Assembly (NCBI GenBank): GCA_044892525.1
Contig: CM097885.1
Location: 14,944,001-15,008,000 of the forward strand
Source of the DNA: Schmidtea polychroa
Lineage: Eukaryota
Length of the DNA stretch: 64,000 nt
Direction: 5' to 3'
This document shows, piece after piece, positions 1,529 to 37,453 of this stretch. Made by a program: the position numbers and the translations under genes. Under the pieces are notes generated by a model. That model saw nothing but the letters and a program-made list of their open reading frames with translations. It searched no databases and had not been told where the DNA came from. The first letter of the stretch is position 1, and every line of letters begins with the position of its first letter.

Positions 1529-4500
1529 TTAAATTTGATCTTCGTCCCATTCGCTGTCGTCAAAACTGGGACTTGGAGCTGCACTGAATTCCTCATCATA
1601 TTCGCTTAATTCGTCAACTCCTAAATAGTGCCCAAATGCGTAACTTAAGTTCTTCCCTAGCCACGCGCGCTTATCATCATTATTACTTAGGGCAATTTTC
1701 GAATTTTTAAAAGTAAAAAGTTGGTGATTTCTAGTACCTATTCTAGTCTGCGGTACAGAAATCACCTGATTTGAATGAAAGCAATTTAGATATGATTCGT
1801 GATTTATTGATGTCCCTGGTAATTTAACCCCTTTCGCTTTTACTGTTTCCTTACTACCTAAAAGACTATAACATTTAGGGCGTAAGAAAACCCATTCGGA
1901 ATAACCTAATCCCTTGCTCTCATCTTTAAACTTCCCGATGACAGAGTCAAGGTTCCTATTATATAAGGGGTGTGTTGGATCGTAATTTGACGTATCCAAT
2001 AAATTATCAGAGATCATCTGAGGTAATAGAGTTGTTAATTTTAAATTTTTAATTTCCAAAAAGAAACTGTCGGTATCACCGGCAATAATATTAATTATAC
2101 ATTTATATTGGCGTCTGTACTTCTCCAAATCAATATATTGGAGCTGGTACATCCGCAGTTTAGACAGATCTAGTACTGTTTGACCAATGTAGCTAGGTCT
2201 GTCTAAACAAATCACATCTTTTTCTAAATGTGCCGCAATCAGATCGTTATCGATTCTTATGGACTTTCTGAAAGTCGGCTTTGAGGAGTATACTATCATC
2301 TTTTCGGATGAATTACACAACCTCAAATTCATTCTTTTTTTCAAATTTTCAACCGATTTACCGTAAAGAGAGTTATTATACAATTTAAACAAGTCCCTAT
2401 ATATCTCGCTAGTAGACTGAGATCGTAAAGTGGTGTTGGTGTCTATGTAGGATTTAAAGATAGGTCCTTGTTTAAACTTTATACACCTATGAATATTTAC
2501 AACAACCGCACCTAATTCTATATACAATTTGAGAAGCCTCCAATGAAGAACATAGTTCCTCTTTGGCCAATGCGTAAGCATAAGCTTCTCAACTTTTGAA
2601 TTAGGTGGGCACAACTTTTCCGGCGCAAGCGGAAAATCATTCAAAAAGTCATGCACACATTCCGGAATATCGATATCGACCTCCATAGTATACCCATATG
2701 GAAGGTTATCAATATCCGTGTTCATACATTCAAGTAAAACATCATTCAAGTTATTATTCACCCAAGAAAAATCACCATACGGAAGATTTTGGCTAAGAGC
2801 CCAACCATACAGATTATTTATATCAATGTACAATAATTCTGTATCATCTGAAGTAGCCGTGTAATGTTTGTTAACAAATGTTAACCCACCCCGGATACCT
2901 CCCTCATAGAAATTATACATTTCCATGTCCTGCAGAAGTTCTATTGGTTCCGTTAATGTCATAAGCGCTGAGGCCCATGACATACCGGGAATCCCGTAGA
3001 AATTAAGAGGATCCAGACCTTTGTAAGCAATTGCCTTACCGCGGAATTGCTGAAAATAATCTGCGAGGAGGTATACGTCCAATTTTAGGTAGATTAACAT
3101 ATAATCTAACAAATTATTACAGTTATGCTGACTCCAAATTAGTTGAGCCTCAGCGTACTGATCTTCCGTAACATCAGACCAAATAGGAGGTAATTCTAAA
3201 GTCGATTCAAGAACATCTAAAGAAGTAGCGAAATTATATGGAAAGATACCTTTAGAGTGAATCATCGACCCTTGAAAGACAGACGAAGTTAACGGAAAAG
3301 TAGTTAAGGTTTTCACAGCTTTTGCTAAAGAACAATTAACAAATTGCATGCTGTCAATAAAACGAACAGGCAATTTGTTAATATATGCAATTAAAGATAT
3401 AAATTTTTCTGTAGAGGTAGGTATAATATTAAGTTCCCAAAGGGGAAAATCACTGAGACCATGTTTTAAAATATGGTGGAGGTCATAGCCTCGTAAATTA
3501 TGAAAGACAACAGGTAACAATTTATTAATCCTGCGAGAAACATTGCATTTCCTACATGCCGCTCCGACATATCTACCTGTAAAATGACAATGATCTCTCA
3601 CAGGATTAATAATAGATTTTTTACACAAATAACAAATAGTGGAAGATCGAAAGGCACGCTCCTGAGCAAAAGACAAAGTAGACATACCTTTACGACCTTT
3701 AAGATCATAATATGGCAGGACAATTGTGACAGCAATTTCCTCCACTTTCCTCAAAAAATCCAAAATACAATTAGGTCCAAAAAAATAATAATAAAATTTT
3801 GTGTTTGTATAATTATTAATTAATAAAAGACCTGCTGATATGGGTAAATGTATTTGATGATATGTTTCATGTTCTGGTAAAACCGATTCAAAATCGGCAT
3901 AAATTACGAAGGGAGGTGTAACTGTTTTTGCGTAATCTGTGAATAATAAATCCTTATTTTTAGGAAGTGTATACAAGGTTGTGCCAGTCTGATTTTTACA
4001 GCATAGAGCAACATGCTGATCGAAAGCATTCTTATATCTAAAGCCATTTAAACAATGTGGGCACCAGTTACACCTTATTTGAACGTTAACATTTTCATTT
4101 AAATGGCAATTCATTAATTTGTCCAAGTCTGTCACGGCCGTATAATGATATTTATCTTTATTACTCAAAAGTAATAAATAAATTGGCCTACCATCTATAA
4201 CCTTGGAGCGATGTATGATATTAAGATGAGGGTGGTGAGCTACATAATCCTGAGAAATATCACTATCAGTACTGGCTGGATTATACGAAAGAACGTTTAT
4301 GCTTAAATTTAAATCACGATTTTTCCTTTCAAATTTAGGAATGTTACATAGCCTCATCGGGCAATCGGTGTCTTCGTCATAATTTAATAGAGGTAAAAAT
4401 TCTATATATTTGGCGGCTCTTTGGTGATTACGACCTATTTCTTCTCTTTTTAAAAGTGCAAGAATGCTATATAAGAAACACTTATGGTCGTTGTTTTTAA

Positions 4501-5645
4501 CGTTAATTATTGCATGTTTTAATTTTAAAGCCGATGGGGTTTTTATATAGCTATGTCCGGATAATCTACTAACGGGTGCGTATTTCGTTAAAATAAAATC
4601 TATCTCTAAAATATTCACTACTCGCCACCCGCTTCCTAAATAGGTGAATTGCTCAATCTTTTCATTTAATTTGCTCACCCCCTCGTTTATAAAATTTGCT
4701 GAAAAAACTTGCGCATTGTTTGAAAAATAATTATCCCGGATCTCCCCATCTTTTTCAAATTTAATTAAAATTGTAAATTGGATTTTTACATTGCCCATCT
4801 TTTCTATTTCCTCTATTAATCTTTCTTCAATTTTTGATGTTAGGGCTATTTTAACCAGGTTTTCATTTCTTATATTAAATTTTAAAGTTTTACGTGATCC
4901 ATTCAAATCGGATTCAACAACTGGTTCAAACAAAGAGCCGCCTATTTGAAATATGTTGAAAGACGTTGAAGCTACACATTCATCATTGATGACTATCACT
5001 TCTTGTTGTGTAATGGGTGCTTGTTGTGTAATGGGTGCTTGTTGTGTAATGGGTGCGTTGCTGATGACTATCACTTCAGGTCGCGATAATTTATTAGGAA
5101 TGTAACTTTTAATTAAACCAGCAGGTCTTTTAATAGAATCTTTTTTAATATTTATAATATCTTTTTTAATAATATTTATAGTATCTTTTTTAATAATAAT
5201 AGCATCTTTTTTAATAGAATCTGTTTTTTCTTTTATAATATTTTTTTTAATATTTTTTAAATCTTTTTTAATATCTTTTTTTAAATCTTTTTTAATAATA
5301 TTTTTTGGTAAATTTTTTGATAAATTTTTTTGTAATTTTTTATTTATTTTTTTAAATAAAACATTTTTTGATATCGAAAATTGCCCTAAGTGACTATGAT
5401 GTTTATTAAAAAATTCCCTATATTTTATTTTTTCGCTCGTTACGCATTTGGGGCATATAAAAAAGTTGAGCGAATTAAACGTCTTTTTGTAGTACTTTTT
5501 CATTGTGCGATGACATTTATCGCTATGTCCATTTGCAGCTTGACAATAATTTGGGTATAGTCTACCTGTTAAATAATAAAATTAAAGTTTTTTCTTTTTT
5601 TTCTAATTGTTATTAATTGTTACATCTATAAGGATTTATCATCAT
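1529..5645 (-). CDS. polB: Protein-primed family B DNA polymerase (pPolB); probable 22-nt first exon 5624-5645
   Basis: Exo motifs YADFES and FHNLRGYD; KGIFPY, YIDINNLYG, KLYNNSLYGK, GDTDS, LRPKCY. OTU-like DHKCFLYS...HY segment, C2H2 finger and EndoVII-like CYLC..RDHCH..C..CN. The frame is open to an acceptor at 5566, and intron 5566-5623 gives the N-terminus MMINPYRCRLYPNYC. Confidence 0.96.
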
Positions 5646-7122: not shown

Positions 7123-8000
7123 TTAATATAAAAAATATAAAAATAAATGAATCTTACATTTCGATTCCATATCGGAATCAGAGTCCTCCTCATTAGAAGC
7201 GATGTCATTCATTTCGTCCATATTAGAATCAGAGTCCTCCTCATTAGAAGCGATGTCATTCATTTCGTCCATATTAGAACTATTATCGGAATCATCATCT
7301 TCAGCAATTTCATAATCTTCGGCATCAATGTCAACATTGAAAACATTTGAATTTGAATTTGAACATTTGAAAACATTTGAAACATTTTCTAAAATGAAAA
7401 ATTAATTTAATAAAGTGAAAAATAATAAAATTTACTTTTTTCTTCGAAAACCTTGTTTTGCCCAACATTCTTAACTGGGGCATCAATAAATATCAAATCC
7501 TCATCGGCATTAATTTCTTCGTCTTCGCTAATAGTAATAATACTAGGTTCTAAATGCAAAAATTAATTTAATAAAATTTAAAATTATAAATTTACCGATG
7601 ATATTTTCCGTATTTAAAATCGATTCGGCATTAATTTCTTCATCGTCGTCGCTAATAGTAATAATACTAGGTTCTAAATGCAAAAATTAATTTAATAAAA
7701 ATTAAAATTATAAATTTACCGATGATATTTTCCGTATTTAAAATCGATTCGGCATTAATTTCTTCATCGCCGTCGCTAATAGTAATAATACTAGGTTCTA
7801 AATGCAAAAATTAATTTAATAAAAATTAAAATTATAAATTTACCAAAGATATTTTCTACATTTAAAAGCGAATCGTTTTCGGTAACCTCATACCAGTCGA
7901 ATGGTTCTAAATAAAATAGAATAAAATATAATAAAATAGAAAAAAATAAATTACCATTCGTCAAAAGACCTCTCAATACTCGATTCTTGTTGCTTTCCAT
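7123..8000 (-). CDS. Six-exon acidic protein (about 214 aa) with tandem SUMO-interacting-motif-like repeats
   Basis: Exons 7955-8000, 7844-7906, 7720-7797, 7596-7673, 7436-7549, 7123-7388. Five 46-48 bp GT-AG introns, all phase 1, give an uninterrupted frame with 3x EPSIITIS(D/E)xxEE. The 3' end is uncertain (possible further donor at 7157). Confidence 0.8.
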
Positions 8001-8517
8001 TTTGGTTTTTTTTTCGAATTGATTGTGAAATAGATTTTCAAAATTTTAAAATAATTGTGACAAATTTTAGATTTGTCAATGTTTATAAAGAGAATGAATA
8101 TTTTCCTGTCCCAGCCAATGAGAATATAGACACACACACATATACATTGAATATTTTACTCTCTCAACCAATCACACGCATGCATGTATGTAATGTAAAT
8201 CAGTCAGAATTACATGTGACTGCCTTTGTTAGTCATGCCTTTGTTAACTTGCACTGTGCATGCCTCAGGCAAAGGTAGTCTTTATGTTACAAATAATAAT
8301 ATTTATTAGAATAATAATAAAATTAATTAAAAATAATAATATTTTTCACAATAATAATAATATTAATAATAATATTAATAATAATAATATTAATAATAAT
8401 AATAATAATACTATTAATAATAATATTAATAATAATAATATTAATAATATTAATAATAACACAACAACAAAGGAAAGGATACATTTATTAAACATCAAAT
8501 TTATTAAACATTTTTCT

Positions 8518-8904
8518 TTAAACATCAAATTTTTTGTACAATAACCAAGCTAAACAATGTTGACCGCATGTTTGGGTCAAAGGATTTTGAAACATAGTTT
8601 TATTATACACAATAGGTTTTCCCATTGTTTGTAGTTTTGATATCAACAAAGCTGGGTAATAGAAACCCATAGGATCGAACACGAATATATTACCAGGTTT
8701 CACATATATAGCTATCCAATGTTCTCCACCAAGATGAGACGATTGAGTATTGACGATTATTGCTTGATTATTGCTCAAATATGGAATTTTATCAAGAGGA
8801 AAAACTCCAACAAATTCATTTCCCAATATCTGTTTTCCGATTTTATTGACCTGAACAGAACTATTTAAATAAATCCAGAGTATAAAAAAAACAACTTACT
8901 CCAT
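8518..8904 (-). CDS. Adenain-like (C5) virion maturation cysteine protease, 2 exons
   Basis: IIVNT...GEHW...FDPMG...Q...CGQHC catalytic motifs. A 39-bp intron (8861-8899, donor GTAAGT) supplies the ATG: MDSVQVNKIGKQILGNEFVGVFP. Confidence 0.92.
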
Positions 8905-8931
8905 GATAACTTTTTGTGTTTCTGTATACAT

Positions 8932-10152
8932 TTATACCAACACGGTTCTATTTGCAGTAATTTGAACTTCATTTTCAAATACTCCATATATTATAACATG
9001 TACTGGTTCTGTAATGGCTCTTGCAAACTTTATATCCAGTCGTAAATTCCCGTTTTGTGGTAATTGACTTTGATTTAAATCAAAATCAGGGGCTAAAACA
9101 AATGTAAAAAATGGGTATTTGCTTTTAAAATCTTCTAGTGTTATTCCGCAATTCAAATTTTTATCTAAATAACCCAGATTTCTAACAATACTCTGCATAT
9201 ATGTCGCGCAGTAATTGTCATTCTCGAAATCTTGAATATATGTTTCTCTATAATCAGTATTTTTCGACAAAGTCAATGATGTAACACCAAAGTTTTTGAA
9301 AATTGAGCTGGACGCAGTGTATGATCCATTATATTGTGCTTCACTTTGAAATGTTATCAGAATAAAATTAGGCATTCTTCTGTCACCAAATATTTGTTCT
9401 TTATAGAATGATGAAGCACCTTTAGCAATAGCAAATTGTACAATTTCCTTTGTTTTTAAGGGATAAATTGCATGTTTTGAATTAAGACCCAATTGATGAC
9501 CAGCTAATACAGAGGGGTCTACTCGAACTCTTCTCACCAATAATTTTGCATCAACTAATTGACATATTGGTGTAGTAGTTGCACTAGTAAGAGATAATGC
9601 AGAATCAGACCTTTTCAGTCTAATATGTACATTAACCCCCGGTAGTAAATATTTCGGTTGATCCATAAAATCAAGTTGTAACGATGAGCACATGGTGAAA
9701 ACCTTTGAGCCTTTTACCCACTTTTTTCTTTCATCATCACTGCCATAACCCATAGGAGTAAGACATGTATTTTTAGTATCGGAATTGTAATTTAAAATAG
9801 TTTCTATTAATGCCTTGTGAATGAATGTATTATTTCCGCCCTCAATCTTGATATTATTAAATCCCAACACTGCATCTTTAAAAAGAGTATGAAACAGGAA
9901 ATTGTTCGATATTACATCTGCATTGGCATCCAAAACTTTTCTATCTTTATCTACAACCTTAATCTGAACAGTCAATAAAGTATCATTCAAATCTAAATAT
10001 TCGGTTTGCTAACCATTAATATAAAACTCGATATCATTTCTACTATCGGTAATTGAATTCATAGGAAAAACTTCCTCAAATGCCCCAAATTCTATTACAG
10101 CCTGGGGCGACGGTCTATCAAATATACATAATTCGGATTTACCACAAATCAT
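8932..10152 (-). pseudogene. Polinton major capsid protein (double jelly-roll) with one in-frame stop at 10009-10011
   Basis: ATG 10152 (ATGA overlap with upstream stop) reads MICGKSELCIFDRPSPQAVIE...IEFYING*QTEYLDLNDT. Family motifs LDFMDQPKYLLPGV and GNLRLDIKF follow. Confidence 0.87.
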
Positions 10153-10517
10153 TTTGCAAATATAGTTCCATGTCCTTTCATTCGTTTGTTTATACGTGAT
10201 ATTCCATGTCTTTTACGTTTTGGAGCATGAGCTGGAGCTGGAGCTGGAGCTGGTTTTTGAAACATACCTGCAACCCCGGGTAAAACTTTCCCTAATTCTG
10301 CTAAAGCATTTGTTTTTAGAGATGGTAATATTTTCTGTTCATTCATAATAACATCTTTTGCAGTTTTCATACCAAAACTACCAATACGTTTAAGAATAGG
10401 CAATGCAAATCTACCTATTGTTCTCAACCATCCTGATCCGTACTGTTTACCAATAAAATATGGTAAATCACCACCAGATTGGCCACTATACATACTAATA
10501 ATATCAGAATTAGCCAT
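10149..10517 (-). CDS. Small basic Polinton virion protein (QxGxG plus amphipathic helix; core or membrane-lytic type)
   Basis: QSGG..PYF.GKQYGSGWLRTIGRFALPILK with a basic C-terminus; sits between mCP and MCP with coupled stop/start. Confidence 0.75.
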   Translation of the reverse strand: MANSDIISMYSGQSGGDLPYFIGKQYGSGWLRTIGRFALPILKRIGSFGMKTAKDVIMNEQKILPSLKTNALAELGKVLPGVAGMFQKPAPAPAPAHAPKRKRHGISRINKRMKGHGTIFAK

Positions 10518-11568
10518 TTATTTTACGAAAATGTAATGTCAAATGAGTTTTTGAGCCTTTTGGAAATTCGATTAATTGACCAGAATCATCTCTTATATTT
10601 ATTTCTATATTGTTTATACAAGATGTTGAAACAGGTAAATACATGGGATTTTCTACATTGATTTGTACAACTTCATCTTGATCATGTTTTTCAATCCATA
10701 TAGATTTCATTAAAGGAACACTAGAATCGCCAACAATAACTGGTTCCACGATATTACTGTAAATGAACATTTGCTGATGATGTTTAAGGATTTTCGGTTT
10801 GTTTGTTCCTTCACAAATTTGTTCATTTTGTGTACATACTGGTTTAGTCAATCCTAATGTTTTTGTCAAATTTGAGTCAAATTTAACTTGACTAAGATTA
10901 GAATTTATACTAAATCTAAATACTTTATCTTTTTGAAGCTCAAAAATATCGCTACAATTGTCACCTAAATAAGTTTGTAATTGTTCGAGGTCTGTAATAT
11001 ATAAATTATCTTTAAAAGTATATGCATGCTCTGTTATTTCAATGTATGACAGCTTAAATTTGAATTCCACTAAATTATTAGTTTTCGGAAGTGTAGAGAT
11101 ATTTATTTTGACTGTATCATTAAATACATTACGTAAATCAGTAAATCCAAGACGTTTAGCATCAGCCACTGTAGAAAATATAATTTCGAATGGCTTATTC
11201 AAGCAATTCATGTATAAATATTGACCATCATCATAAATTATAGGTTTCCTTGATTTCGATGAACTCGTCAAGTTATAATTATCTTTATCAATAAGAACAT
11301 TAATATATTCCGTTACTGCTACTTTCTTATTATATTCAATAACGGATTTGCTATAGATTGGGAATAAATTGTATACAAATGTAAAATCCAACAGAGCAAC
11401 TTCCCAGTCATTATCCAAATAGATAGGGTTTTGGAGTTCGATGATGAATTTGCTTGCTTGATTTTCTGGATGAATTAATGGACAACTATTGCTCGGCAAA
11501 ATAGTATAAAAATTCACTTTACTATGTCTTTTGCTGATATCCATGACGGGTTTTGATAACCATGCCAT
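10510..11568 (-). CDS. Minor capsid (penton-like) protein
   Basis: FYTILPSNS...F...L.NPIYL..DWEVAL at the N-terminus and FIYSNIVEPVIVGDS..PL...YLPV...I.I.IRD..G..I.F...T.LTLHFR at the C-terminus. Exact start codon uncertain. Confidence 0.87.
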   Translation of the reverse strand: MAWLSKPVMDISKRHSKVNFYTILPSNSCPLIHPENQASKFIIELQNPIYLDNDWEVALLDFTFVYNLFPIYSKSVIEYNKKVAVTEYINVLIDKDNYNLTSSSKSRKPIIYDDGQYLYMNCLNKPFEIIFSTVADAKRLGFTDLRNVFNDTVKINISTLPKTNNLVEFKFKLSYIEITEHAYTFKDNLYITDLEQLQTYLGDNCSDIFELQKDKVFRFSINSNLSQVKFDSNLTKTLGLTKPVCTQNEQICEGTNKPKILKHHQQMFIYSNIVEPVIVGDSSVPLMKSIWIEKHDQDEVVQINVENPMYLPVSTSCINNIEINIRDDSGQLIEFPKGSKTHLTLHFRKING

Positions 11569-12146
11569 TTGACATAGTATTGTTTATCCTTACCGACCTT
11601 TTTAGTTTTCAATATTTTTTGAATTCTAAATACTTTTGGGGGAGGAATGACTTGTAATTCCTGCTCATAAAATTTCCCCTGTAAAATATTATTATCATTG
11701 TCTTTGATGACATACATTACAGGATTCTGTTTAGTATTTATTTTTGAAATTACAAAGACTTCATCACTCCAATTTGTATCAAAATTTTTAATAAATGGTG
11801 ATGCACTAATTTTACTAATTCTAACATGGTCACCGACTTTATATTTAGGTTTTGCAATTTTTACAGATTTCTTAGAAGTCAATGATGTTTTTGATGTAAT
11901 ATCAACCGGTCTCAATCCATTCAGTCCTCGATGTGATGAATGATTATAACTTGTTATTATTTTCGGTAAAGCATTTACCCATTTTTTATTACCTTGATGC
12001 ACGAACAATTTCTTTAATCGATCTCTCAATGTTCGATTAAATCTTTCAACATGGGCAGCTTTGTATTGAGAATGTACCGAGTAGTGATTTATTTTCAGTT
12101 TATCGAGGATTTGCTTAACTTTACTATTGTAGAATTCTTTACCTAA

Positions 12147-12238
<92 letters not shown>

Positions 12239-12626
12239 CTAAATCTGTTTGCAAGTTATTAGGATGTCCGTCTTTAAATAAAATATTAATTGCCTTGGAC
12301 ATTTCTTCTGCAGATTTTGCCTTGACCGGTATTGCTCGTGCAAACCTGCTGTATACATTAATACATGTTAAAATATATTTATTCCCATTGTTAATTTTCG
12401 AATATGGTATCATCTCCATCAAATCCATTTGCCATAAATCGTCAATACCAAATGTTTTATACGCTCTTGTTGGAAATCTTTTCCGCATTGGTTTGTTCAA
12501 ACTGTACGCAAGCTGATCTGATAACCACTTCTGGGTTTCTTTTTTCGAATTCGGAACTCTTTTGTTTAATTTTGCCACTCCACCGAAACCGGCTTCGTCT
12601 TCTGGGTTCGTCCAAATCTTCTCCAT
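11514..12626 (-). CDS. Retroviral-type (rve) integrase with C-terminal chromodomain; 96-bp microsatellite intron 12143-12238
   Basis: DDE motifs WQMDL, QTDLG/KEFYN (restored by splicing) and VERFNRTL; chromo-like YYVKWHGY..SW. Confidence 0.94.
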
Positions 12627-12684
12627 TACAACAAGAAGATTTAAAATTAAATTTAATGTCGGGCAATGAAGGATTAGCACCCAT
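12457..12684 (-). CDS. Putative small N-myristoylated protein overlapping the integrase 5' end
   Basis: 75-aa ORF starting just after the upstream stop at 12688; MGANPS, CC and a basic cluster. Confidence 0.35.
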   Translation of the reverse strand: MGANPSLPDIKFNFKSSCCNGEDLDEPRRRSRFRWSGKIKQKSSEFEKRNPEVVIRSACVQFEQTNAEKISNKSV

Positions 12685-12687
12685 TGT

Positions 12688-13221
12688 TTATGATTGATTT
12701 CCTACAACTCCACCTAATAATGATAATGCCAGAGGTATTAATGCGCCAATAAATCCACCTTGTTGTTTATATATAATTTTTCTCATTTGCTTACGATTTT
12801 TATTATTTACTAAAGATAACAATGGTTTCCTATGTTTGCTCAATAAATGCTTTTTTGATTTACTGATTTTAATTTTGCCTTTGACTACTTTAAGTATAAT
12901 ATTGAGTAAATCATCGACAACAAAATTTGGGAATGATTGCAATATATTCATTCTTTTCATACTCGGGGCCTTTAACAATGCATTAAAAAATGGAAAACTG
13001 CGATGATTTTTAATTACTTTTTTACCGGCTTTACGGGTTTTACGGGTTTCACGTTTAGGTTTAGGATTTTTCGAAATAAGATTCATTGCAGAGAAATTTC
13101 CAGTTACAAGTTTTTTAGATGGTGTATAACTAGTTGTTGGTGGAACTTTTGGAACTTTAATACTCTTTTTAATACTTTTTCTTAATTTCCTAATATTTTT
13201 CACCCTTGCTTTTAGAAACAT
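12688..13221 (-). CDS. Very basic Polinton core-like protein with C-terminal QxGGF plus hydrophobic tail
   Basis: Lys/Arg rich; ends KQQGGFIGALIPLALSLLGGV. Confidence 0.78.
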   Translation of the reverse strand: MFLKARVKNIRKLRKSIKKSIKVPKVPPTTSYTPSKKLVTGNFSAMNLISKNPKPKRETRKTRKAGKKVIKNHRSFPFFNALLKAPSMKRMNILQSFPNFVVDDLLNIILKVVKGKIKISKSKKHLLSKHRKPLLSLVNNKNRKQMRKIIYKQQGGFIGALIPLALSLLGGVVGNQS

Positions 13222-13239
13222 TATTATTCATAGAGGTTT

Positions 13240-13866
13240 TCAACTTTGTTTATAAACCATGGCACCTTTTGGGTTGAAAATATCTGTTTTTACTCGTAAA
13301 TCATCGGGACATTGTTGTGTGAAATCAAGAAATATATATCCATGAGGTATTTTTCTAGCATCTTGAAATGCACTGATAAGAAAATTACGATTGTTAGGGT
13401 ATGCTTGACGTGCAAGAAAATCAATCACTGTTGCATCTCTAGGATTCTTGAAAATGACTAAATACTGTACATTTAAATTACGTGTTCGATGTGCCCCACC
13501 TTGATGAAATAGATTTTGAGTTATGAAAATAACTGTTACACCGACATGTCTGCTGATCTTTGTAAATAAATTATTAAAATCTTTTTCTTTATTAGCTTCT
13601 TGATACAAATCATCGATAATAATGACATCACCTTTCTTTAATCGGCTGGACCAGTTTTTATCGAATACCTTTACTATTTTCATGTTTTTTAATTTACAGA
13701 AACTTGATTGAGTTAATCCATGTTCTTCATCAGCACCCCTATGCCAATAAATCCTGTTGAATTTTGATTTGAATAAATTTGATTTTAGTAATTTACAAAC
13801 AAATAATGTTTTTCCACTACCACTCGGACCAACGATTTGGTATACTGCATCATTTCTTAATTCCAT
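13240..13866 (-). CDS. A32/FtsK-HerA type genome packaging ATPase
   Basis: Walker A GPSGSGKT, Walker B IIIDDL, SRH...FITQNLF, FKNPRD. Confidence 0.95.
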   Translation of the reverse strand: MELRNDAVYQIVGPSGSGKTLFVCKLLKSNLFKSKFNRIYWHRGADEEHGLTQSSFCKLKNMKIVKVFDKNWSSRLKKGDVIIIDDLYQEANKEKDFNNLFTKISRHVGVTVIFITQNLFHQGGAHRTRNLNVQYLVIFKNPRDATVIDFLARQAYPNNRNFLISAFQDARKIPHGYIFLDFTQQCPDDLRVKTDIFNPKGAMVYKQS

Positions 13867-13965
13867 TTCAAAGATTTTATAAATGGATATTTGTTTATAT
13901 TCGATGATTTAATGAACTCATGCTCAATTTGTATATAAAGACTAATTTTCATAAATGATTTAATA

Positions 13966-14403
13966 ATGTTAGCAAATATAAATTATCGAGGAAATTTTGA
14001 TGTATCGAATATGAGGTTCCCACCAGGGAAACCTCAGCAAATTATCGATAGAAGCGGGAAATATCCGATAATATTTTTCAAGACTGGTAAATGCCGAATC
14101 ATGGGATGTAAGAAACCTTTGGATATTAATAAATTACAATATCGAATAAATAATATTAAAATCCAATCAATTACCGTTACTATGGATATGGGACATAGTA
14201 TCAATCTATATAACATGTCGAAAAAATGTGATTGTATGTTTGAACCGGAATTGTTTCCGGCACTAAGACTAATAAAATATAACCCTATATGTGTCAACGT
14301 GTTTGCTAGTGGAAAGGTTGTCATGTTGGGGTTGAGAAATTTGGAGTATAGAGAATTTGTTGACAATGTTCGAAATGAGATAATTTCATTGGTCGATTTT
14401 TAA
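13966..14403 (+). CDS. TATA-binding protein (TBP)-like protein
   Basis: Two TBP repeats: IFFKTGKCRIMG and INL...FEPELFPAL...VNVFASGKVVMLG. Confidence 0.88.
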   Translation: MLANINYRGNFDVSNMRFPPGKPQQIIDRSGKYPIIFFKTGKCRIMGCKKPLDINKLQYRINNIKIQSITVTMDMGHSINLYNMSKKCDCMFEPELFPALRLIKYNPICVNVFASGKVVMLGLRNLEYREFVDNVRNEIISLVDF

Positions 14404-14473
14404 TTGGTTAATTTCTAATTGGTTATTGATTGATTTAAACAAACGGTTTTTTGTTTAGAATTCATTTTTCACT

Positions 14474-14891
14474 ATGTACAAAATACCAAGCTCTGCAACC
14501 CTCATGAAGGATATTGACGATTCCGGTAAATTTAAAATTTTTATTTTCACATTATTTACTATTTATTATTTTAGAAAAATATATCAAAGTTATGATCAAT
14601 AGAATAAAATATTATTATCCGCAAATCAATGAAATTATCAAGGATAGAGAAGCAGAAATAATTCCGGACCTCATTTTCTACAAAACACAAATTAGAATAA
14701 TGGAGGTATTTCACCAGTTTCTGTGGGATTTAAAGATAAACAGAAGCATCAAACAAATGGAGCCAGAGTACCAGTGCATCATCGGATGCTCATGCTGTGC
14801 CGATCGATATCGGCGATATGTCGAATGGGAGTTAGTGAAAACTCTGCGAAGGTTTCACTACTCCCGGATTGTAGATCTTGGATATGAATAA
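14474..14891 (+). CDS. Hypothetical protein, 2 exons (14474-14525, 14575-14891)
   Basis: A 49-bp GT-AG intron (14526-14574) joins MYKIPSSATLMKDIDDS to EKYIKV...; Cys cluster CIIGCSCC; AATAAA overlaps the stop. Confidence 0.65.
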
Positions 14892-15295
14892 ATGTATTTT
14901 TGTATCTGTTGTGTTTTTATATTTGAAATAGTAATAAATAATAGTAATAAATAATAATATTAATAATAATAGAAATAATAATAGTAATAATAGAAATATG
15001 AATAGTAATAATAATAGAAATAATAGTAAAAAAACATTAATAATAATAATGAAACACATTATTAATAAATCTGTAAATAGAACATATAACAAAACATGTA
15101 ATAATTAAAACATTAATAATAAAACACATAAATAATAAATCTGTAAATAGAACATATAACAAAACATGTGACAATGCAACATCAATGCATTTTGAATGCA
15201 ATTTTAAACAAAGACATGCTGTAATCTGATTGGTTGATAGACATGAGTCAAAGGTATAAAAACCCTGTAACATTTCAATTTATTCATTATTCACG

Positions 15296-15706
15296 ATGAC
15301 CAAGAAAATTTCAAGCACCGAAAAACCAAAAGAAATGGTACAACCAGTTCAAATGTTCCACAACTACAAAATGTATTTTTTGAAAGAAGAAATCAATATG
15401 AAATTGGTTGCACCAGTCAAGCTAATTCCAACTAAATTCGAATTCTTATCCGGCACGCTTTCAATGATTGATGTCAAAACTATTGATGATGTTTTTAAAC
15501 GGATAGATTCGAATCTATCGTGTAATCAACATGCATGGTTCAACAATAGATATGCAAGATTTTATGATGCTTTTGATGAAATCAGTTTCAAAGAAAATGA
15601 AAATTGGTATATAACAATAGCAATCCAGGGATATAAAGTTGATAATAATGATGTATATTCTCCTATTTGGAAAATTATGTCTGCTAGACTTTCACAAATA
15701 TTTTAA
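15296..15706 (+). CDS. Hypothetical protein, possibly an OB-fold ssDNA-binding protein
   Basis: Own CCAAT/TATA promoter and AATAAA. C-terminal ITIAIQGY..YSPIWKI..ARL resembles viral SSB strands (impression only). Confidence 0.55.
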   Translation: MTKKISSTEKPKEMVQPVQMFHNYKMYFLKEEINMKLVAPVKLIPTKFEFLSGTLSMIDVKTIDDVFKRIDSNLSCNQHAWFNNRYARFYDAFDEISFKENENWYITIAIQGYKVDNNDVYSPIWKIMSARLSQIF

Positions 15707-15832
15707 TGTTATATTTAATAAATGTATTAGTCAGATTTGTTTTTCTCTTTATTAATTGCAACATAAATGCAAATGACCTGCAAATTTAACAAAGAAAATC
15801 TATAAACAAAATTATAATATAGTTTTAAAGTG

Positions 15833-16218
15833 ATGAAAATGACTGCAGAAAAAGGTTAACATGATTAATTAATTACCGAATTATTTATTATTTAGAATTT
15901 TTAATCAACTTTTTGTTGGAAAAGTTAGCAGAAATATCTGGTGTGAAAATGGAGGATATATTATCTATTACAAATGCCTTAAATATCGGCTGGTTAGTTG
16001 AGAGTCAAGATACAGGATTTGATGATGAGGAAGAAACTCAAGAAATTGATGAGGAAGAAACACAAGAGGAAATGTATGAACCTATAGAGGAACCTATAGA
16101 GGAACCTATAGAGGAACCTAAAGATGAATCTAAAGATAATATTACGAATGATTGTATTGATCATGTCGTTGAAAATATAATGAAATGTGGAGATGACGAC
16201 TGCGAATGTGTTAATTAA
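15833..16218 (+). CDS. Small acidic protein with EEPI repeats, 2 exons (intron 15855-15895)
   Basis: A 41-bp intron joins MKMTAEK to EFLINFLLEKLAE in frame. Confidence 0.6.
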
Positions 16219-16286: not shown

Positions 16287-16801
16287 TTATTTAAAAAAAC
16301 GACATAAAACATATAAAATAGCAACACCTGTTGCAAGTTTTAAATAGTTTTTAAATTGGATTTTTTGCTGATCTAATTCTTTTGCATTTCTGGCGAGTCG
16401 ATTCAGCACGCCCCATCCGCCATTGGCTTCAATCCATGGCTGAAACTTTGACTTGATTATCTAGAAAATATATATTAATAAAATATAGATTATAAAAGTA
16501 TTACTTCTTGAGACCACTGATAATAGTGCTCGGAATCCAATAGGCTTTTTTCAATTATTATCTTCATATAAGCGAACCCTACTAATATTCGGGTCCACTT
16601 CATCTCCTCGTCGCATAAGCAATTAAATATTCTATTAAAATAGAATTTCTTTGTTTCGAGGGAATCGGAATTGAGGACGTCCTCATAATCAATGTGATTA
16701 CCTTCTATAATCTTTTCGGTCCGATCGACCAGGAAAATTAGGCTTTCCATAATATTCCTGTTGATGAGTTCTCTTAACATATTTTCCATTAAATTAGACA
16801 T
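16287..16801 (-). CDS. Bcl-2 family protein (156 aa), 2 exons (16505-16801, 16287-16460)
   Basis: BH1-like DEEMKWTRILVGFAY. After a 44-bp intron: BH2 PWIEANGGW and tail anchor YLKLATGVAILYVLCRFFK*. Confidence 0.87.
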
Positions 16802-17359: not shown

Positions 17360-18683
<1,324 letters not shown>

Positions 18684-20349
18684 TCAATGAGATTTTGGAC
18701 ATTTTTTTATACATGTTTTGAGTGGAAAATGAAAACATTTCAACTTTTCTTACTAATTACAACACTATGACAGTAATTAATACTTCTCTTGAGTCAAATG
18801 TTTTATGGAAAGAAAATAAGACGGCCTTTTATAGCACTACAGAAAAAGGTTTTGCAAAATAAGGTAATTTTTGATAGGTTAACTAATTCAACATCACGGT
18901 TGATCACTTCAAATGTGTCTTATCAAAGCATGGAAAAAGTCATTCAAGTTTTATTCAAATAATATTTTCCTCGAATTTAATTGAATATTTTAGGAAAGGT
19001 AACTCAAATTTGAAATTGAGATAATATATCACTGAATCTATTAAAAATAATTTTTTTATTCCTACTGAGATGGGTTTAACTTTGAAAATATTTCCAATTT
19101 TTTCTTCTACAAAGAACAATTATTACACAATTAAAAATTCAAACATTTAGCTATTATTAACAAGGTTGCTTAATTTCTTAAATAAATATCTTACCTTTAT
19201 ATTTATACTTCAGAAATTCTAAAAATTATTTTAAAAATTATTAAATCAAAAGCATGAAAATAAATTACTAAACAAATTAACAATTACTATTGAAATTTTT
19301 ATTACATTAAAAAATTAACTTAAAATAAATTAAATAAGAATAAATAGCGCAATTGATAGGCATTCATTTAATGTCATCTTGGCCCTTACTTCTCAATGTT
19401 TATGTATTAAAAAATGCCAAAGTGCAATTGATAATGGCTAATTGGACATTAAATAAAATCCAGTCAGTTGCGCTTTATGTTAATTTTAATATTAACGGTA
19501 AATTTTAATGTTAAATTATATGTAATTAAATGCTATATTTTCTTTTTTATTTAATATAAAAGTAGATGGATGGAGCACCGCAAGATCAGGTCTCCGCTGG
19601 ATCACATACCCCCTCCTCCTCCCCCCGAAAAAATTTTTTTTTAAATAAAAGGTCAAGGTCATATTATTATTTTTAAAAATATTATTATTGATCTAGCGGA
19701 GTCCTACATTTTGGCACCCCAAATGTTATTGTTCCCATCATTTTATTTCATTGATCGATAGCTCATATTGAAGCTTGGTGCAAGACCCTTCGAATGAGTT
19801 ATGGATGTCACCATTACCATTATTATTAGTAAGGTTATCAACAATTGAGGACCAGCATCTTTTCAAAGGTAAATTATTATTTTTCAAAATATTATTAGTG
19901 ATCTAGCGGAGTCCTACATTTTGGAACCCCAATGACTCATCCGATTACTCATCATATTTTTATAACAAAGACAATGACTCATCAATGTAATATTATTATT
20001 TTCCAAAATATTATTAATGATCTGGCGGAGTCCAACATTTTGAGACCCCAAACGTTAATGTTCCCTTTATCCGATTTTATTGAACAATAGCTCGTCTTAA
20101 ACCCGACTGCAAGACCCTTTGAATGAGCTATAGATATAATCATTAACATTATTATTGATAAAGATATTAACGCCCTCGTGAAAGATATTATTATCATTAT
20201 TATTACAAAAAAACAAAACAAAACTTAAAAATAAAATTTTCTATGTAATCACTTCTTATAACTATTACATTTAGTTTTTATCTCCCATTAAACTTAAAAT
20301 TAAGGAAACGAAGCCCAAAAATCTAGTTAGGGTGCGAAAATAAATTCTG

Positions 20350-22347: not shown

Positions 22348-24807
22348 TATAGTTCCTCTACCGGTAAAAACCTTTACCGTTTACCGGTAAATTGCGCATT
22401 TTTACATTACCGTTTACCGGTAAAAATATTTACTAAATTACCGGTAATACGGTTATTGTGCAAAATAAAAAAATATTATATTTATCCTATAACAATAAAT
22501 ATAAAAACCAGTAAAACTGAATTACTTAAAGAACTGTGCATGTGATTTTGTGATTTTTTATTTAAAATAAATAATATTTCGTAATACATAGAAACAAATT
22601 TTTAGAAACAAAAAATCTCGTAAGTAATATAAGATTTATCTATAACGTTATTGATTTATTATTAAAATAAAATTATATTGAAAAATTAATATTTTTTAAT
22701 AAATAGAATATTGTTTAAATAGAATATGGGTTCTTCAAATGTTTGGGAGCATTTTGAAAAGCGAAAAGACAGTAATAAAGAAGCTATATGCAGATTATGT
22801 AAAAAATCTATTAAATGTGATGGTGGTTCAACAAGTGGAATGATTTCGCACCTTAAACTTGTACATAAAATTTTGATCAAAAAAGCAGCTGATAATGATG
22901 CAGGTCCTAGTACTTCTGCCTCTACATTTAAAAAGGATAAAATATTAATATCCAGTTATTTACAACGTGAAACTTTAGAAGAGATTGTGTCTAGACTAAT
23001 TGCTTTAGATGATTTCTCTTATTATGGCGTCACAAATTCGTCTTTCATTCGGCAAAGTATAAATAAACTAGGACACAAGCTTCCAAAAAATTCAACGGGC
23101 ACGATGGAATTGGTAAAAGTTATTACGAAAAAATAAAAATACAACTTGTAGAACAATTACAGTCCAAAATTTCTATTGGGAAACGATTTTCGCTGTCTGT
23201 AGACGAATGGACAAGCATCAAAAATAGAAGATATTGCAATATTATTTTGTATGATGACAAAGAAAATGACAATCTTGGTTTAGCAAGAATAACTGGAAAA
23301 TGTGATGCAAAAAATATTCAGGCAATAATAAGAAACCGATTAAATGAGTTCAACGTATATTTTGATCATCATATTTTATGTTCAATCAACGATGGTGCAG
23401 CAGTAATGCAAAAATATAATAGAGAAAGTCCAGTTGAACCGGTATTATGCTTAAACCATGCACTACATTTATCAGTAACCAAGTTTTTCTACCAAAAATA
23501 TGTTGATGAAACTGACCAGAGTTCAATTGCAAATGAGAAAGACATTATTTTGGAAGAGGAATATGACAGTGACGCTGACATTGATGATGGTGACTCTGCT
23601 GAACCAGATAACCATATGATAATTGAAAAGATAAACGAGGCAATTGAAAATGATGAATACAGTCATTCAATATTTTTCATTCAATTGCAAGCCTTACGCA
23701 GCGTCATTAAATATTTTCGATTATCGTCATTGAAAAATGATTTTTTGCAAGAGAAGATAAAAATTCGACTTGGCAAAGAACTGGAATTAAAAATAGATAT
23801 AAAGACACGTTGGAATTCCATCGATCCCATGATAGAACGATATTTACAAGTAAAAGAAGAAGTAAAAGAAGCCTTAGAATATTTTAATTCTCTTCATTTG
23901 TTTTCCAGAAAAGACGAAAAATATTTGATAAACATTCAAAAAATTTTAGAGCCAGTTCGGATTGCCGCAGAAGCCTTAGCAAGAAATGATGCTATTTACC
24001 ACGGAAAGTGTAATTGAATTGTTATGTTCAACATTGGAAAAAAATACCGATTCACCAATAACTTCTAACTTCTTAGTTTGTTTGAAAAGAGAAATTGATA
24101 AAAGACGTAATATTAAATTATTGTCTCTTGTACAGTACATACTTCATCCAAAAAATTTAATGAAACGAAATGTTCACTTTGATTACTGTTCAAAGTTATC
24201 GACAGTGGCATTTGGGAAAAAATAATTGAAAGATTATTCAAATCAGATGAGTCAGCAGAATCAGATTCAGAAGATAATGTCGAGACCGACCTTTTAAATA
24301 CTGACTTGAAATCTCAATTTCAAAAAGCTATTTCTACAGCTATGGTTTCCATTTCCAGTAAACCAGTAGGATTATTATCATCAGTCCAGAAAGAGTTTTT
24401 ATTTTTTGAAGTATCCGGGTAAAAAAAGTCATAATCTCACACTTTTGTTCGAAGCTCTGCAAACCGCAAAACCAACATCTACAGACAATGAAAGAACATT
24501 CTCCATAGCGAGCCGAGTTTGCACTAAAATAAGAACTAGGTTATCGGATGAAAATTTGCACATTATCGTTTTCCTTAAATATTTCTTTTTGAAACAAAAT
24601 GTTAACAAAAATAATGAATAATTTAAATTTTTGTATTTAGTTCTTTTCTTGAATGATTTCTTTTATATAATATGTATGAAATAAACATATTGTAATGTTT
24701 TTTTTCAATTAAACCATGATTTTGTTTTAATTTCTGGTAAAATGTTTATTACCGAAATTTACCGGTTTTACCGGTAAAATAAAACATACGGTAATTGAGG
24801 AACAGTA
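22348..24807 (+). mobile_element. hAT transposon, full length, frameshifted BED-finger transposase (22726-24621), 8-bp TSD GTCATAAC
   Basis: VWEHF..C..C BED finger, DEWTS, DGA, CLNHALHL, TRWNS, ERTFS. TIRs TATAGTTCCTC/GAGGAACAGTA, subterminal TTACCG repeats, TSD at 22340-47 and 24808-15. Confidence 0.93.
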
Positions 24808-33688: not shown

Positions 33689-34708
33689 ATGAGGATACTA
33701 GGGATCGAATTTGCATCATTTCTCGTTCCACTTGATAGAAGACTACAAACATTTGCTGTTGCTCAATGGTTTTTTAATTGTTTAATAACACCTTTACTTT
33801 GTGTTTTATTGATAATCATCAGTTTGTTCACTCCTGTAATGCCAATAACCATTTTATACTTGTTATGGATTTATTTCATTGACTATAAAACTCCAAAATC
33901 TGGTGGACGAAGATTCAATTATATTAGAAGCTTGAAATTTTGGAATTATTACAGAGATTACTTTCCTATTAGTTTAATTAAAACTGCTGATTTGGATCCG
34001 AAAAATAACTATTTATTTGGATATCATCCTCATGGAATTCTGGTTTGCAGCGCATTTTGTAATTTTTGCACAGAAGCAACAGGTTTCTCTAAATTGTTTC
34101 CGGGAATTCGGCCATCAATGTTAACATTAGTAACGAATTTTTATTTTCCTCTATTGAGGGGTTTACTATTAGCACTCGGTGCTTGTGATGTCAGCCGAGA
34201 GAGTGTTGAATATTTATTGACTAAAAACGGAACAGGAAATGCTGTAGTCATTGTTGTTGGAGGAGCCGAAGAGGCTTTAGATTCCAGACCAGAAATATTC
34301 AAATTGACATTGAAAAATAGAAAAGGATTTGTGAAAATGGCTTTAAAAACCGGAACTCATTTAGTTCCATGTTTTGGATTTCATGAAAACGAAATTTTTA
34401 ACCAATTACCAAATCCAGAAGGATCTTTTTTGAGATCATTACAAGAAAAGGTAAAAAAAATCTTTGGCATATCACCACCTCTATTTTATGGTAGAGGTAT
34501 GTTTAATTACACATTCGGCTTGATGCCTTTTAGAAAACCATTAGCAACTGTTATTGGGAAACCTATACCATTGGAGAAGAATGAAAACCCGTCACAAGAA
34601 TTATTAAATGAAATACATCAACGTTATCTGGATGAATTAACTAATCTTTTCGAGGAAAATAAATTAAAATATGGAATAGGTGAAGATAAACATTTGACAT
34701 TTGTTTAG
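33689..34708 (+). CDS. DGAT2/MOGAT family acyltransferase (intronless CDS, 339 aa)
   Basis: RRLQT, RDYFP, YHPHG, VVGGAEEAL, RKGFVKMAL, GRG...GLMPFR. Confidence 0.95.
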   Translation: MRILGIEFASFLVPLDRRLQTFAVAQWFFNCLITPLLCVLLIIISLFTPVMPITILYLLWIYFIDYKTPKSGGRRFNYIRSLKFWNYYRDYFPISLIKTADLDPKNNYLFGYHPHGILVCSAFCNFCTEATGFSKLFPGIRPSMLTLVTNFYFPLLRGLLLALGACDVSRESVEYLLTKNGTGNAVVIVVGGAEEALDSRPEIFKLTLKNRKGFVKMALKTGTHLVPCFGFHENEIFNQLPNPEGSFLRSLQEKVKKIFGISPPLFYGRGMFNYTFGLMPFRKPLATVIGKPIPLEKNENPSQELLNEIHQRYLDELTNLFEENKLKYGIGEDKHLTFV

Positions 34709-35350
34709 AAATAAAACGGAATTGCAAATATTTATAATCTTATATGGCCAATAGATATTATCAATAATATATTACATGTCTTAAAAGCTTCGTTTCAATT
34801 TAGTTATTTACAATCCAATAATATTTTTGTAAATAAAATTATATTATTTAGATTCAATTGAAATACCAAATATGAACATATTATTTTATATTTTGAAATT
34901 TTATAAATACAAGTTTTAGAATGACTTTTTTATTAAACCTTTTCATATATTCATAATGATTAATAATTTATATAATTTAATTTAACAACTTTCTTATTTA
35001 TAACAAGGTTAGTGTAAGTAGGATAGTAAAACAAGAATTTTCAAATTAAATTTAACAAAATTCAGTGAAAATTGATAACGAAATTTTGCACATTTTGATG
35101 ATTAGATTAAATTTTAATAGTTAATTGATTTATGCTAGTTATGCTAGTTTTGTATTGAATATATTTTTGGAAGTTCATGTTGATTATTTCCTTATCTTTA
35201 ATTAATAATTTTGATGATCTTTTTTATGACTCATTTATGCTTTACAGATATTGAAGAACAGTACTGTCAACATACTTCTAAGGAAAATTCTGGAGAACAG
35301 ACTTCCTGAGTCTAGTGAAGGACACATAAGATTTAATTGTTATAAAGATA

Positions 35351-35542
35351 CCGTATATATACTCGCATATAAGCAGACCCTCCAAATTTGGTTGATTAAA
35401 ATGTCAAAAATAGATGACCCGCGTATAAGCCTATCTATTAAAAATGATATTTTGGTTAATATATAATTTATTTGAAATTATGCAATTAACTACGAATCAT
35501 AAAAGAACCAAATTTACTCGGCCTATACACGAGAATATACGG
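35351..35542. mobile_element. pogo/mariner-type MITE (TA TSD)
   Basis: TA|CCGTATAT...ATATACGG|TA. Confidence 0.75.
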
Positions 35543-35597
35543 TAAGCCCTTCAGGGATCCAAGTTACAGAATATCTATCTACGGTTATGTTACATAC

Positions 35598-35599
<2 letters not shown>

Positions 35600-35696
<97 letters not shown>

Positions 35697-35724
35697 CGAG
35701 ATAGAGATAAAGATAGAGAGAGAG
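35600..35724. repeat. (TA)n(GA)n microsatellite
   Basis: Direct reading. Confidence 0.95.
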
Positions 35725-36301
35725 CAGTGCTTCGTGAGTTTTACTTCGAAAGAAAATCTCGTATAAAACGATACAGGAGTTATCTGACTACCTCTGAAAG
35801 GACAAGAGTACCTCTGGTAATGAGTTACGGGTGAATTTTGGTTAAAGTTTCCAGATCAGAAGACTCGAAATTGTAAATATATTTAAATAAGATAACTCAT
35901 GATTTCTGACCGCATTTGAATTTATATTCACTTATGAAATCAAATACTGCGAGAATTCCTACCTAACAATAGGTATTACTATTTGAAATAAATTACTTTT
36001 TATTGATTTCAAAAACAAAAAACAGGTTTTATTAATTTTAAACATAAAAGGAATAAACGTAAACAGAATAATCAATCGAATGCTCAAAAAATCATTGGCA
36101 TCGACAAGCAGGCAGACAGCCGCACAAAATCAGGCGTGCACACACATTCACGCTCGGTATTATGGCAATTGCATTTTCATAGAAATTAATCAATGAAAAT
36201 CTATAATACGGCTCATTCAAAATTCAAATTTTATGGCATCTATTTCCATTATATCAATAATTTATGAACTTTATTAATGAATATTGCAGATATTTTTGAA
36301 T

Positions 36302-37453
36302 TTATCGAATACTTTTCAAGTATAACCTAAACAAATTCATAATAACGATAAATTTTCCTATAGAAAAATCAATAACATTTTCTTTTCCTTCAAGCGCTTC
36401 AAGCGTAACCAATTTAATATTTCCACAAAGATTATCGCACATTTTCTCAATGTCATCCCATTTGATCCCAGTGAGAAAAACGCAATGTTTACTCCAAATA
36501 TTCGAGTCAAGCCGTATTTCATTCATCAAAAACTTGCTGACACAAAGCGCCGTAGCCGCTATGAAACTGTACGGATAGCCGGCCAATTTGATATCTGTCA
36601 ATGAAATATCAATCAATAAATTTGACATTTCAAAAACGCTTTTGTAATTCGGTATCTGAAATTGGAGAAAAAAATTACTATTCATTCAATAAACCTAGTT
36701 TTCTTTCACCTCTCCAATCAGCACGAAAATCTTGAGAAAAACCCCAGCTGTGTAGATGTTGGTTTCAAAATCGAGAACTTTGAAAATCTCAAACTCAAAA
36801 GCGATGATATCGGTTTTCGGCATCTTTGACTGGATCGCTTTCAAAACCGTGTGAATCGGCGGTATTAATATCTCTTCCATTTTAAATGCAATCAAAGATG
36901 AAGCAATTGCTAATTTGAAAATCGAAACTTGATCCAAAACGCCTTTTCTTATGAAAAATTGATCGAAAATAGCGATAGAGAGTTCAAATGTAATATGTTT
37001 AGCATTGAAACCGGTATGGAACTTCGACATCCATGTAATGATGGAAAAGCGAGCTTCTGCAGTTATTGGGTAGATTGATTTCAAATTCGGTCCAGTGAAA
37101 ATGTTGAGAAATTCAATGTCTTGCAAGGAGTCAATCATTTGACATACGAAATTCATCTCATTGTTCACATGCTTATAATGGGGAGGAATTAGATCCGTAA
37201 TAGATTTGAAACTTAAATCTGAGGAATTTCTTATTTCTTGTTTCTGGTTCAAGAATGCCTCCTTTAATGAGATGATGTTTTCAGGATTTTTAGAGGTAGC
37301 ATAGAGATCAAATAATTTTATTTCAGTAATTAAACGAGGTTTGTAAGGTTTAAACTTCCGTAAATAAAAGTTTAATAGTGAATGTCTTCCACACGATTCA
37401 TAGTCATCCGAAACACCTTTCTTTGTTTTAAAAATTGTTTTGTTCGTAATCAT
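36302..37453 (-). CDS. Divergent cyclin (A/B-like cyclin box), 2 exons, intron 36656-36709
   Basis: ITAEARFSIITWM...TFELSIAIFDQF...LIAFKMEE...FEFEIFKVLDF; exon 2 YPYSFIAATAL; 54-bp GT-AG intron in phase 0. Confidence 0.85.

Follow-up and report, generated by a model that had tools for sequence, protein, structure and literature searches.

The Polinton in the window (the whole stretch of 64,000 nucleotides that was analyzed) encodes a shortened homologue of the TATA-binding protein (TBP), and its structural genes are preceded by the sense-strand box YATAAACA. Sequence features together with a structure model make it probable that the element TBP is made early, recognizes YATAAACA and brings host TFIIB together with RNA polymerase II (Pol II) to the structural (late) genes, where the label "late" was derived from gene function only. 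The preliminary description had named two roles for the protein, a private late-transcription factor and a dominant competitor of host TBP. The first is the best-supported reading and is backed by the box; the second received little support and leaves the box unexplained.

The element has a size of 19,816 bp, with its left end 1.13 kb before the window and its right end at 18683 (Table 1). Terminal inverted repeats, 5'-AG...CT-3' ends, a 6-bp duplication and a size within 15–25 kb are as expected for a Polinton/Maverick. The same is true for the gene set, which comprises pPolB, a retroviral-type integrase, an A32 ATPase, an adenoviral protease and a double-jelly-roll capsid, the capsid fold being based on an orthologue and the polymerase on motifs and sister lineages. 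At least 150 near-identical copies of the element are present in the genome, as the top 150 matches to the TBP homologue in the genome were 99–100% identical. None of these 150 has a stop in the TBP frame, which is partly expected because they are the top-scoring matches and intactness was thereby selected for.

Table 1. Features of the element and of its surroundings (positions refer to the window unless stated otherwise)
Feature	Position	Strand	Remarks
Left terminal inverted repeat	from 1.13 kb before the window to 155
Presumed protein-primed B-family DNA polymerase	1529..5503	-	polymerase motifs in the translation
Adenovirus-type cysteine protease frame	8518..8895	-	Pfam Peptidase_C5, E 3e-6
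Double-jelly-roll major capsid gene	8932..10152	-	orthologue fold
TATAAACA box	10187..10194	-	41 nt upstream of major capsid start
Candidate minor capsid protein	10510..11568	-	conserved in 14 related loci
TATAAACA box	10611..10618	-	100 nt upstream of ORF 10149-10517
Retroviral-type integrase with chromodomain	11514..12626	-	Pfam rve and Chromo
GATAAACA box	11581..11588	-	upstream of candidate minor capsid gene
Small ORF, 75 aa, start MGANPSLP	12457-12684	-	overlaps integrase start; conserved in L070
Box pair, 5' A at 12770 and at 12691	12685..12771	-	upstream of ORF 12457-12684 and integrase
Basic protein	12688..13221	-	conserved in relatives
A32-type packaging ATPase, 208 aa	13240..13866	-	Pfam Pox_A32, E 1.2e-6
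TATAAACA box	13247..13254	-	32 nt upstream of basic-protein ORF, within ATPase coding end
TATAAACA box	13892..13899	-	32 nt upstream of ATPase start; 29/30 copies
TATATAAAG canonical TATA box	13932..13940	+	34 nt upstream of TBP start; in 30/30 copies examined
Shortened TBP homologue, 145 aa	13966..14403	+	C-lobe complete, N-lobe without helices H1/H2
Conserved ORF, 136 aa	15296..15706	+	CCAAT and canonical TATA upstream
Right terminal inverted repeat, ~1.3 kb	17360..18683		final letters TCTACT
Target-site duplication TCAATG, 6 bp	18684..18689	+	same 6-mer just ahead of left end
Non-element features of the window	22726-24017, 33689-37453, 40665-41135, 56740-58304		Pfam
Host TFIIB-like ORFs	G000:C1:23.85-24.19 Mb and C3:38.2-39.1 Mb (L129:3182-4087, L130:3572-4477)

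Several gene assignments need a comment. The major capsid gene of the window copy occupies two frames, with the break near 10009; the fold of a double-jelly-roll capsid protein was recognized in a natural orthologue (L040), with an E value of 2e-15. The integrase of the window copy contains an (ATT)n tract that is translated as poly-Ile. PF03175 was matched by the polymerases of sister lineages, the Pfam search yielded no PF03175 match for the window polymerase itself, and we take the motifs of its ORF to be those of a protein-primed B-family DNA polymerase. The candidate minor capsid protein is our assumption from its position and an N-terminal motif, and the basic protein might be a DNA-condensing core protein. 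Gly-2 of the small 75-aa ORF could presumably be myristoylated. The conserved ORF at 15296 is a direct neighbour of the TBP gene in 21/81 related loci. It found no family assignment in Pfam or Atlas, a comparison with the N-terminal portion of P0244, a fused protein, revealed no real similarity, and we presume that it is possibly a single-stranded-DNA-binding protein.

Further genes were observed in passing. Within the element, a RING-finger ORF is present at 148-474 on the minus strand (Pfam zf-C3HC4_3, E 6e-10), and a 103-aa ORF at 16490-16801 (minus strand), which is conserved in other Polinton lineages of the same genome, has a weak Bcl-2 match below the cut-off (E 0.05). In a related TBP-bearing Polinton, L101, genes of the KilA-N/DUF3627 type and for a parvovirus-type phospholipase A2-like protein were found (7142-8002 and 9086-9487). 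Outside the element, the window contains remnants of BED-finger and hAT/IS4-type transposons, cyclin exons and a diacylglycerol acyltransferase gene that consists of a single ORF.

The 145-aa protein belongs to the TBP superfamily, but it is not a canonical TBP. An element-encoded TBP homologue had been proposed from its motifs, which are indeed present (F38-KTGKCRIMG47, F92-EPELFPAL100 and F113-ASGKVVMLG122), and the proposal was borne out by the Pfam match, the fold and the Polinton context. PF00352 was matched with an E value of 1.3e-15 and 57.4 bits against a cut-off of 22.9, in one stretch covering residues 63–125. All 35 PDB sequence matches contain TBP, and an Atlas look-up led to TBP clusters. 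The structure predicted from 96 homologues is a saddle with a mean pLDDT of 96. It superposes on residues 66–240 of yeast TBP with all 145 residues (Z 13.3, rmsd 2.4 Å) and on yeast, human, plant and archaeal TBPs with Z 11–13 and about 2.4 Å over 140–145 residues; the best unrelated fold reached Z 6.6. Lack of the TBP fold, which had been named as a refutation, was looked for and not found.

Both TBP repeats had been claimed. The C-terminal repeat is complete, and the N-terminal repeat was recognized by the fold and by a profile comparison of the N-half with the C-half (probability 88%, E 3e-6), but it is devoid of helices H1 and H2. The model contains no helix of at least four residues before residue 81 and none in the N-lobe, which agrees with the deletions against cellular TBP in the alignment. 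Canonical TBPs have H1 and H2 in both lobes and a basic patch on the N-lobe H2, and the element protein differs from them in this respect.

The TBP gene and the structural genes of this element are preceded by different promoter words. The TATATAAAG sequence before the TBP gene looks like a host-type (early) promoter, and ORFs 15296, 16801 and 16907 are preceded by CCAAT and TATA-like words. Along the 5.4 kb of the structural block, the box occurs eight times on one strand and once on the other, and where it falls within coding sequence it is retained in more than one reading frame; the upstream region of the window protease contains no box. The TBP gene had been described as transcribed divergently from the ATPase-to-protease block. 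This is correct for gene orientation, because its start is 99 nt from the ATPase ATG (13866, minus strand), and actual transcription is assumed. Contigs of four runs were compared with positions 7500-16200 and cover the TBP gene, and they do not allow RNA origin, strand, level or start to be distinguished. De-repression of Polintons has been reported for a planarian after smedwi-2 knockdown (PMC8532177). ATAAACA was also seen at 5400-5406 (minus strand), within the polymerase ORF and some 100 nt from its 5' end. Three other lineages have it at a comparable position, and there the first segment forms a block of its own; splicing of the polymerase gene or an internal start is conceivable.

The occurrence of the box in related elements was quantified by counting ATAAAC on the sense strand, 110–5 nt before the projected start, in de-duplicated TBP-bearing loci. 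It was found for the ATPase in 29/29, the basic protein in 24/24, the major capsid in 15/15 and the minor-capsid candidate in 15/16 cases, i.e., in 83 of the 84 upstream regions of these four best genes, with 0–1 antisense occurrences per gene (0–2 per gene over the structural-block genes). The ORF-10149 type had it in 11/13, the protease in 8/13 and the integrase in 12/21 regions, and its frequent absence from the latter two counts against the late-factor reading. For six genes pooled, the box was present in 106 of 118 regions, compared to 10.8 in dinucleotide shuffles, and it was the top 6-mer de novo; no single-base variant of ATAAAC exceeded 18/84. The 86 boxes of the four best genes include 55 copies of TATAAACA and 14 of CATAAACA, and the distance to the ATG ranges from 15 to 110 nt, a spread that also counts against the late-factor reading.

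The upstream regions of the TBP genes had ATAAAC in 5/65 cases in sense and 9 in antisense orientation. A canonical TATA was found in 29/65, and the initiator-like word TCAKT in 49/65 versus 17/84 for the four best box genes. A further word, TGTTTWA, occurs in 27/65 of these regions, clustered 50–64 nt before the ATG (e.g., L074, L077, L079, L092 and L094) and often where a canonical TATA is missing; it is possibly a second early element.

Polinton-like contigs without a detected TBP homologue had ATAAAC in 0 of 15 scanned windows, which is a weak control because the four contigs, taken from three assemblies, are partial and three have a GC content of 0.51–0.56. One of the four, L151, has ATAAAC upstream of two other ORFs, at distances of 33 and 38 nt. 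A fifth, TBP-bearing contig of similar GC content had ATAAAC in 3/3 windows of the same scan. TBP-less Polintons were sought in the genome with PF03175; the lineages that were returned also carry TBP, and therefore a same-host control is lacking. Viral contigs were scanned with the ATPase of the window, with one alignment each of ATPases and of capsids, and with the capsid of an element that lacks TBP. These scans yielded no Polinton loci, and neither did a phage collection. As the TBP-bearing loci are related by descent, the box counts are not independent events, and the co-occurrence of TBP and box may reflect shared ancestry; no TBP-less member was found within the lineage.

Could the box be read by a host factor, i.e., TBP, a TBP paralogue or a forkhead protein, with the element TBP in a separate or helper role? 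We regard this as unlikely, at roughly one chance in five. The forkhead consensus RYAAAYA includes ATAAACA, and a forkhead site should be allowed in both orientations and as GTAAAC or ATAAAT. However, the box orientation is strictly sense, and GTAAAC was found in only 3/84 and ATAAAT in 13/84 regions compared to 83/84 for ATAAAC. The host has several divergent TBP paralogues, and ATAAAC is frequent in host DNA (66 in 45 kb, 36 on the plus and 30 on the minus strand), so that the box alone cannot give specificity; selectivity would also have to come from elsewhere, e.g., from open or replicated element DNA. According to the title of PDB 1qn3, TBP has been crystallized on a C(-25) TATA variant, and Hoogsteen pairing is reported in PMC4402545. 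Nevertheless, a promoter read by host TBP should drift to canonical TATA, like that of the TBP gene itself, and the box was missing where TBP was not found.

The DNA face of the element TBP is conserved in a form of its own. Yeast DNA-contact positions were taken from Table 1 of PMC12529657 and mapped via PDB matches and structural and profile alignments. Three equivalents of intercalating Phe residues are kept, i.e., F116 as F38 (95/96 homologues), F190 as F97 (96/96) and F207 as F113 (96/96), as are P191, L189 and N69 (N4 in the structural register). The F99 equivalent is lost, its place being taken by K22 or the invariant P23, with a register uncertain by one. Replacements are near-invariant among the 96 aligned homologues: V122 by R44 (95), T124 by M46 (96), N159 by S68 (92), V161 by T70 (89), L205 by N111 (96) and V71 by N6 (91); T215 is replaced by L121. 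The assignments of N4 and N6 are less sure because the structural and the profile alignment place the first strand in registers that differ by four residues. Conservation was similar in the 137 rows of a wider search. Instead of the four intercalating Phe and the Asn/Thr/Val/Leu face of a canonical TBP, the family thus has three of the four Phe and several polar replacements. A face that is conserved and yet unlike that of TBP suggests DNA binding with changed specificity. The position equivalent to Leu114 is still aliphatic (I36), and host TBP can bind the C(-25) variant, so that there is no simple steric reason for a preference for C.

At the sequence level, the C-lobe acidic pair that binds TFIIB in canonical TBPs is kept (E93 in 93/96 and E95 in 95/96 homologues). 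According to PMC7221094, this pair is the TFIIB contact and is variable in viruses with their own TFIIB, and the contact patch for TFIIA, TAF1, Brf and Mot1 lies mostly on the N-lobe H2. A profile search found no TFIIB gene in the element or in 80 related, mostly partial loci (best E 0.17), and Pfam found no RNA polymerase among the annotated ORFs of the element.

The following sequence of events would unite these results. The TBP gene and some of its neighbours, with canonical TATA, CCAAT and Inr-like elements, would be expressed first by host TFIID. The structural genes would await the new protein behind sense-strand YATAAACA, a variant of the TATA box in which position 7 is C. With its saddle fold, three of four Phe and a near-invariant polar DNA face, the homologue could bind and bend the box, and with the acidic pair kept and no TFIIB gene in the element, it would load host TFIIB and Pol II. 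As the N-lobe helices with the TFIIA/TAF1/Mot1/Brf patch are missing in the model, it might act outside TFIID and escape eviction by Mot1/BTAF1.

The same surfaces could also serve a decoy, which would damp host transcription by titrating host TFIIB (or Brf1) or by binding to host promoters. Kept TFIIB-contact residues, lost regulatory surfaces and the loss of one intercalating Phe would fit such a role, but it leaves the near-invariant non-canonical DNA-face residues and the element-wide box unexplained, and the element persists at no fewer than 150 copies in the host genome. We consider a decoy improbable, with odds below one in ten. Still less credit, about one chance in twenty, is given to the idea that binding of the protein to element DNA serves replication, integration or packaging rather than transcription and that the box is the site for this: repetition of the box along the structural block, eight to one by strand over 5.4 kb, is in line with it, but the sites follow gene starts in orientation and distance, and the TFIIB-contact glutamates would not need keeping.

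The TBP gene is an established component of this lineage. The protein has 109 homologues with 37–97% identity, and a profile search yielded 62 cluster representatives at E 1e-30 or better. A Polinton core gene accompanies the homologue in 37/80 metagenome loci and in 18/21 of those with a length of at least 4 kb. The place of the gene varies: it can be next to the ATPase, in one orientation or the other, or it can follow the protease or the polymerase. A survey of other Polintons had been suggested and was performed: all lineages fetched from the genome carry the TBP gene (37–96% identity in one set), and eight further genome regions turned out to be seven Polintons with TBP and one host TBP paralogue. 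The statement that TBP is not a core Polinton gene is true of Polintons in general. Within a wide lineage, however, the gene is a constant feature, as every examined genome lineage and 18/21 metagenome loci show.

The dN/dS value is 0.18 to the nearest intact lineage and 0.15–0.39 over other unsaturated pairs of open-frame genes; a broken TBP copy compared with its nearest lineage gave 0.87. The tree check covered short and cellular-type TBPs, and it placed the short TBPs apart from 13 cellular-type rows (support 99/98 with 63 rows and 100/100 with 25 rows), within the limits set by long branches and shared deletions. In AU tests on 25 rows chosen by hand, a clade of the window protein with host TBPs was rejected (p 1e-75), and a clade of all short TBPs with host TBPs had a p value of 0.16, so that an ancient origin near animal TBP paralogues is not rejected. 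A recently captured, decaying host TBP copy, the other refutation named in advance, was tested for by dN/dS and the AU test and can practically be dismissed: the p value of 0.16 is compatible with an ancient origin from an animal TBP paralogue, but identity to cellular TBP is about 24%, the clade with host TBPs is rejected, dN/dS is low, 109 homologues exist, and the 150 best genome matches are stop-free, albeit selected for intactness by score. L032, the sole viral-contig match to the TBP alignment (26% identity), was rejected as a relative; it groups with cellular TBPs and is a full-length TBP on an unrelated large virus-like contig.

The host itself has a canonical TBP and several divergent TBP/TRF-like paralogues (L113–L120). 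It is probably a flatworm, as flukes and tapeworms supply the nearest named relatives of a TFIIB with 92% identity to a host exon. In its genome, TFIIB-like ORFs that are intronless and full-length (about 301 aa, zinc ribbon plus TFIIB repeat) gave at least 13 matches, several of them in tandem, 7.9 kb apart. They keep the TBP-contact Arg, and the following Thr is Leu.

In its widest form, the proposal reads that a wide lineage of animal Polintons has a one-protein late switch, a stripped-down TBP with specificity rewritten to YATAAACA that uses host TFIIB-Pol II beyond TFIID, TFIIA and Mot1; we give this version an even chance. Polintons would then be small virus-like elements with their own late-gene switch, and a self-encoded early/late programme would imply a virion cycle without helper virus. 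The matter bears on the timing of Polinton capsid-gene expression and the need for a helper, and as it involves one small protein and an 8-bp element, the timing question is directly testable: a late factor would prefer TATAAACA over TATAAAAG or scrambled DNA. It also bears on TBP evolution, since TBP could shed half of its regulatory surface and change its DNA code, yet keep the TFIIB link. Such a natural altered-specificity TBP-promoter pair would offer an orthogonal promoter tool.

A literature search in openly accessible texts found no description of this Polinton TBP family or its box. A likeness lies in Starrett et al. 2021 (PMC8502044), where the legend of Fig. 5 labels as "TBP" a gene of MELD viruses that have an adintovirus-like PolB, and thus a TBP-like gene in a Polinton-type element. 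The legend gives no family, structure, function or promoter for the MELD TBP, and it does not tell whether the family is the same.

With cellular TBP (PF00352; PDB 1ytb, 1cdw and 2z8u), the element protein shares the full-length two-lobed saddle (Z 12–13), the C-lobe EPELFP stirrup and the equivalents of F116, F190, P191 and F207. Cellular TBP has about 180 aa, whereas the Polinton protein has 145 aa and lacks the N-lobe H1 and H2 and the F99 equivalent.

Most Nucleocytoviricota and mirusviruses have their own RNA polymerase. Their TBPs are likewise virus-encoded TBP folds (BFVD matches of E 2e-8 and weaker, 7–20% identity), and in PMC7221094 the N-lobe regulatory patch of viral TBPs is also described as not conserved. 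The same paper states that these viruses mostly encode TFIIB, whereas the Polinton has no TFIIB gene, and that viral C-lobe acidic residues are about 40% conserved, compared to 97–99% for E93/E95. An orthogonal TBP-TFIIB pair of the giant-virus type, with the cognate TFIIB in the same genome, is thus not what the element encodes.

A functional parallel is KSHV ORF24 (PMC12529657). It too is a viral TBP fold with polar replacements at the V122, V161 and L205 equivalents, and it reads a non-canonical late box and uses host Pol II, which provides the analogy for a late factor. ORF24 differs in being a 752-aa multi-domain protein that is part of a viral complex of several proteins and makes direct contact with Pol II. 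It is predicted to be incompatible with TFIIB, whereas the Polinton protein keeps the TFIIB-contact residues. It is a bare core of 145 aa without the N-terminal Pol II-binding domain and the C-terminal DNA-binding extension of the herpesvirus vTBPs (ORF24/UL87/BcRF1). Taken together, the best reading is that the Polinton TBP would work like the late-gene TBP mimics of beta- and gammaherpesviruses, from outside their family.
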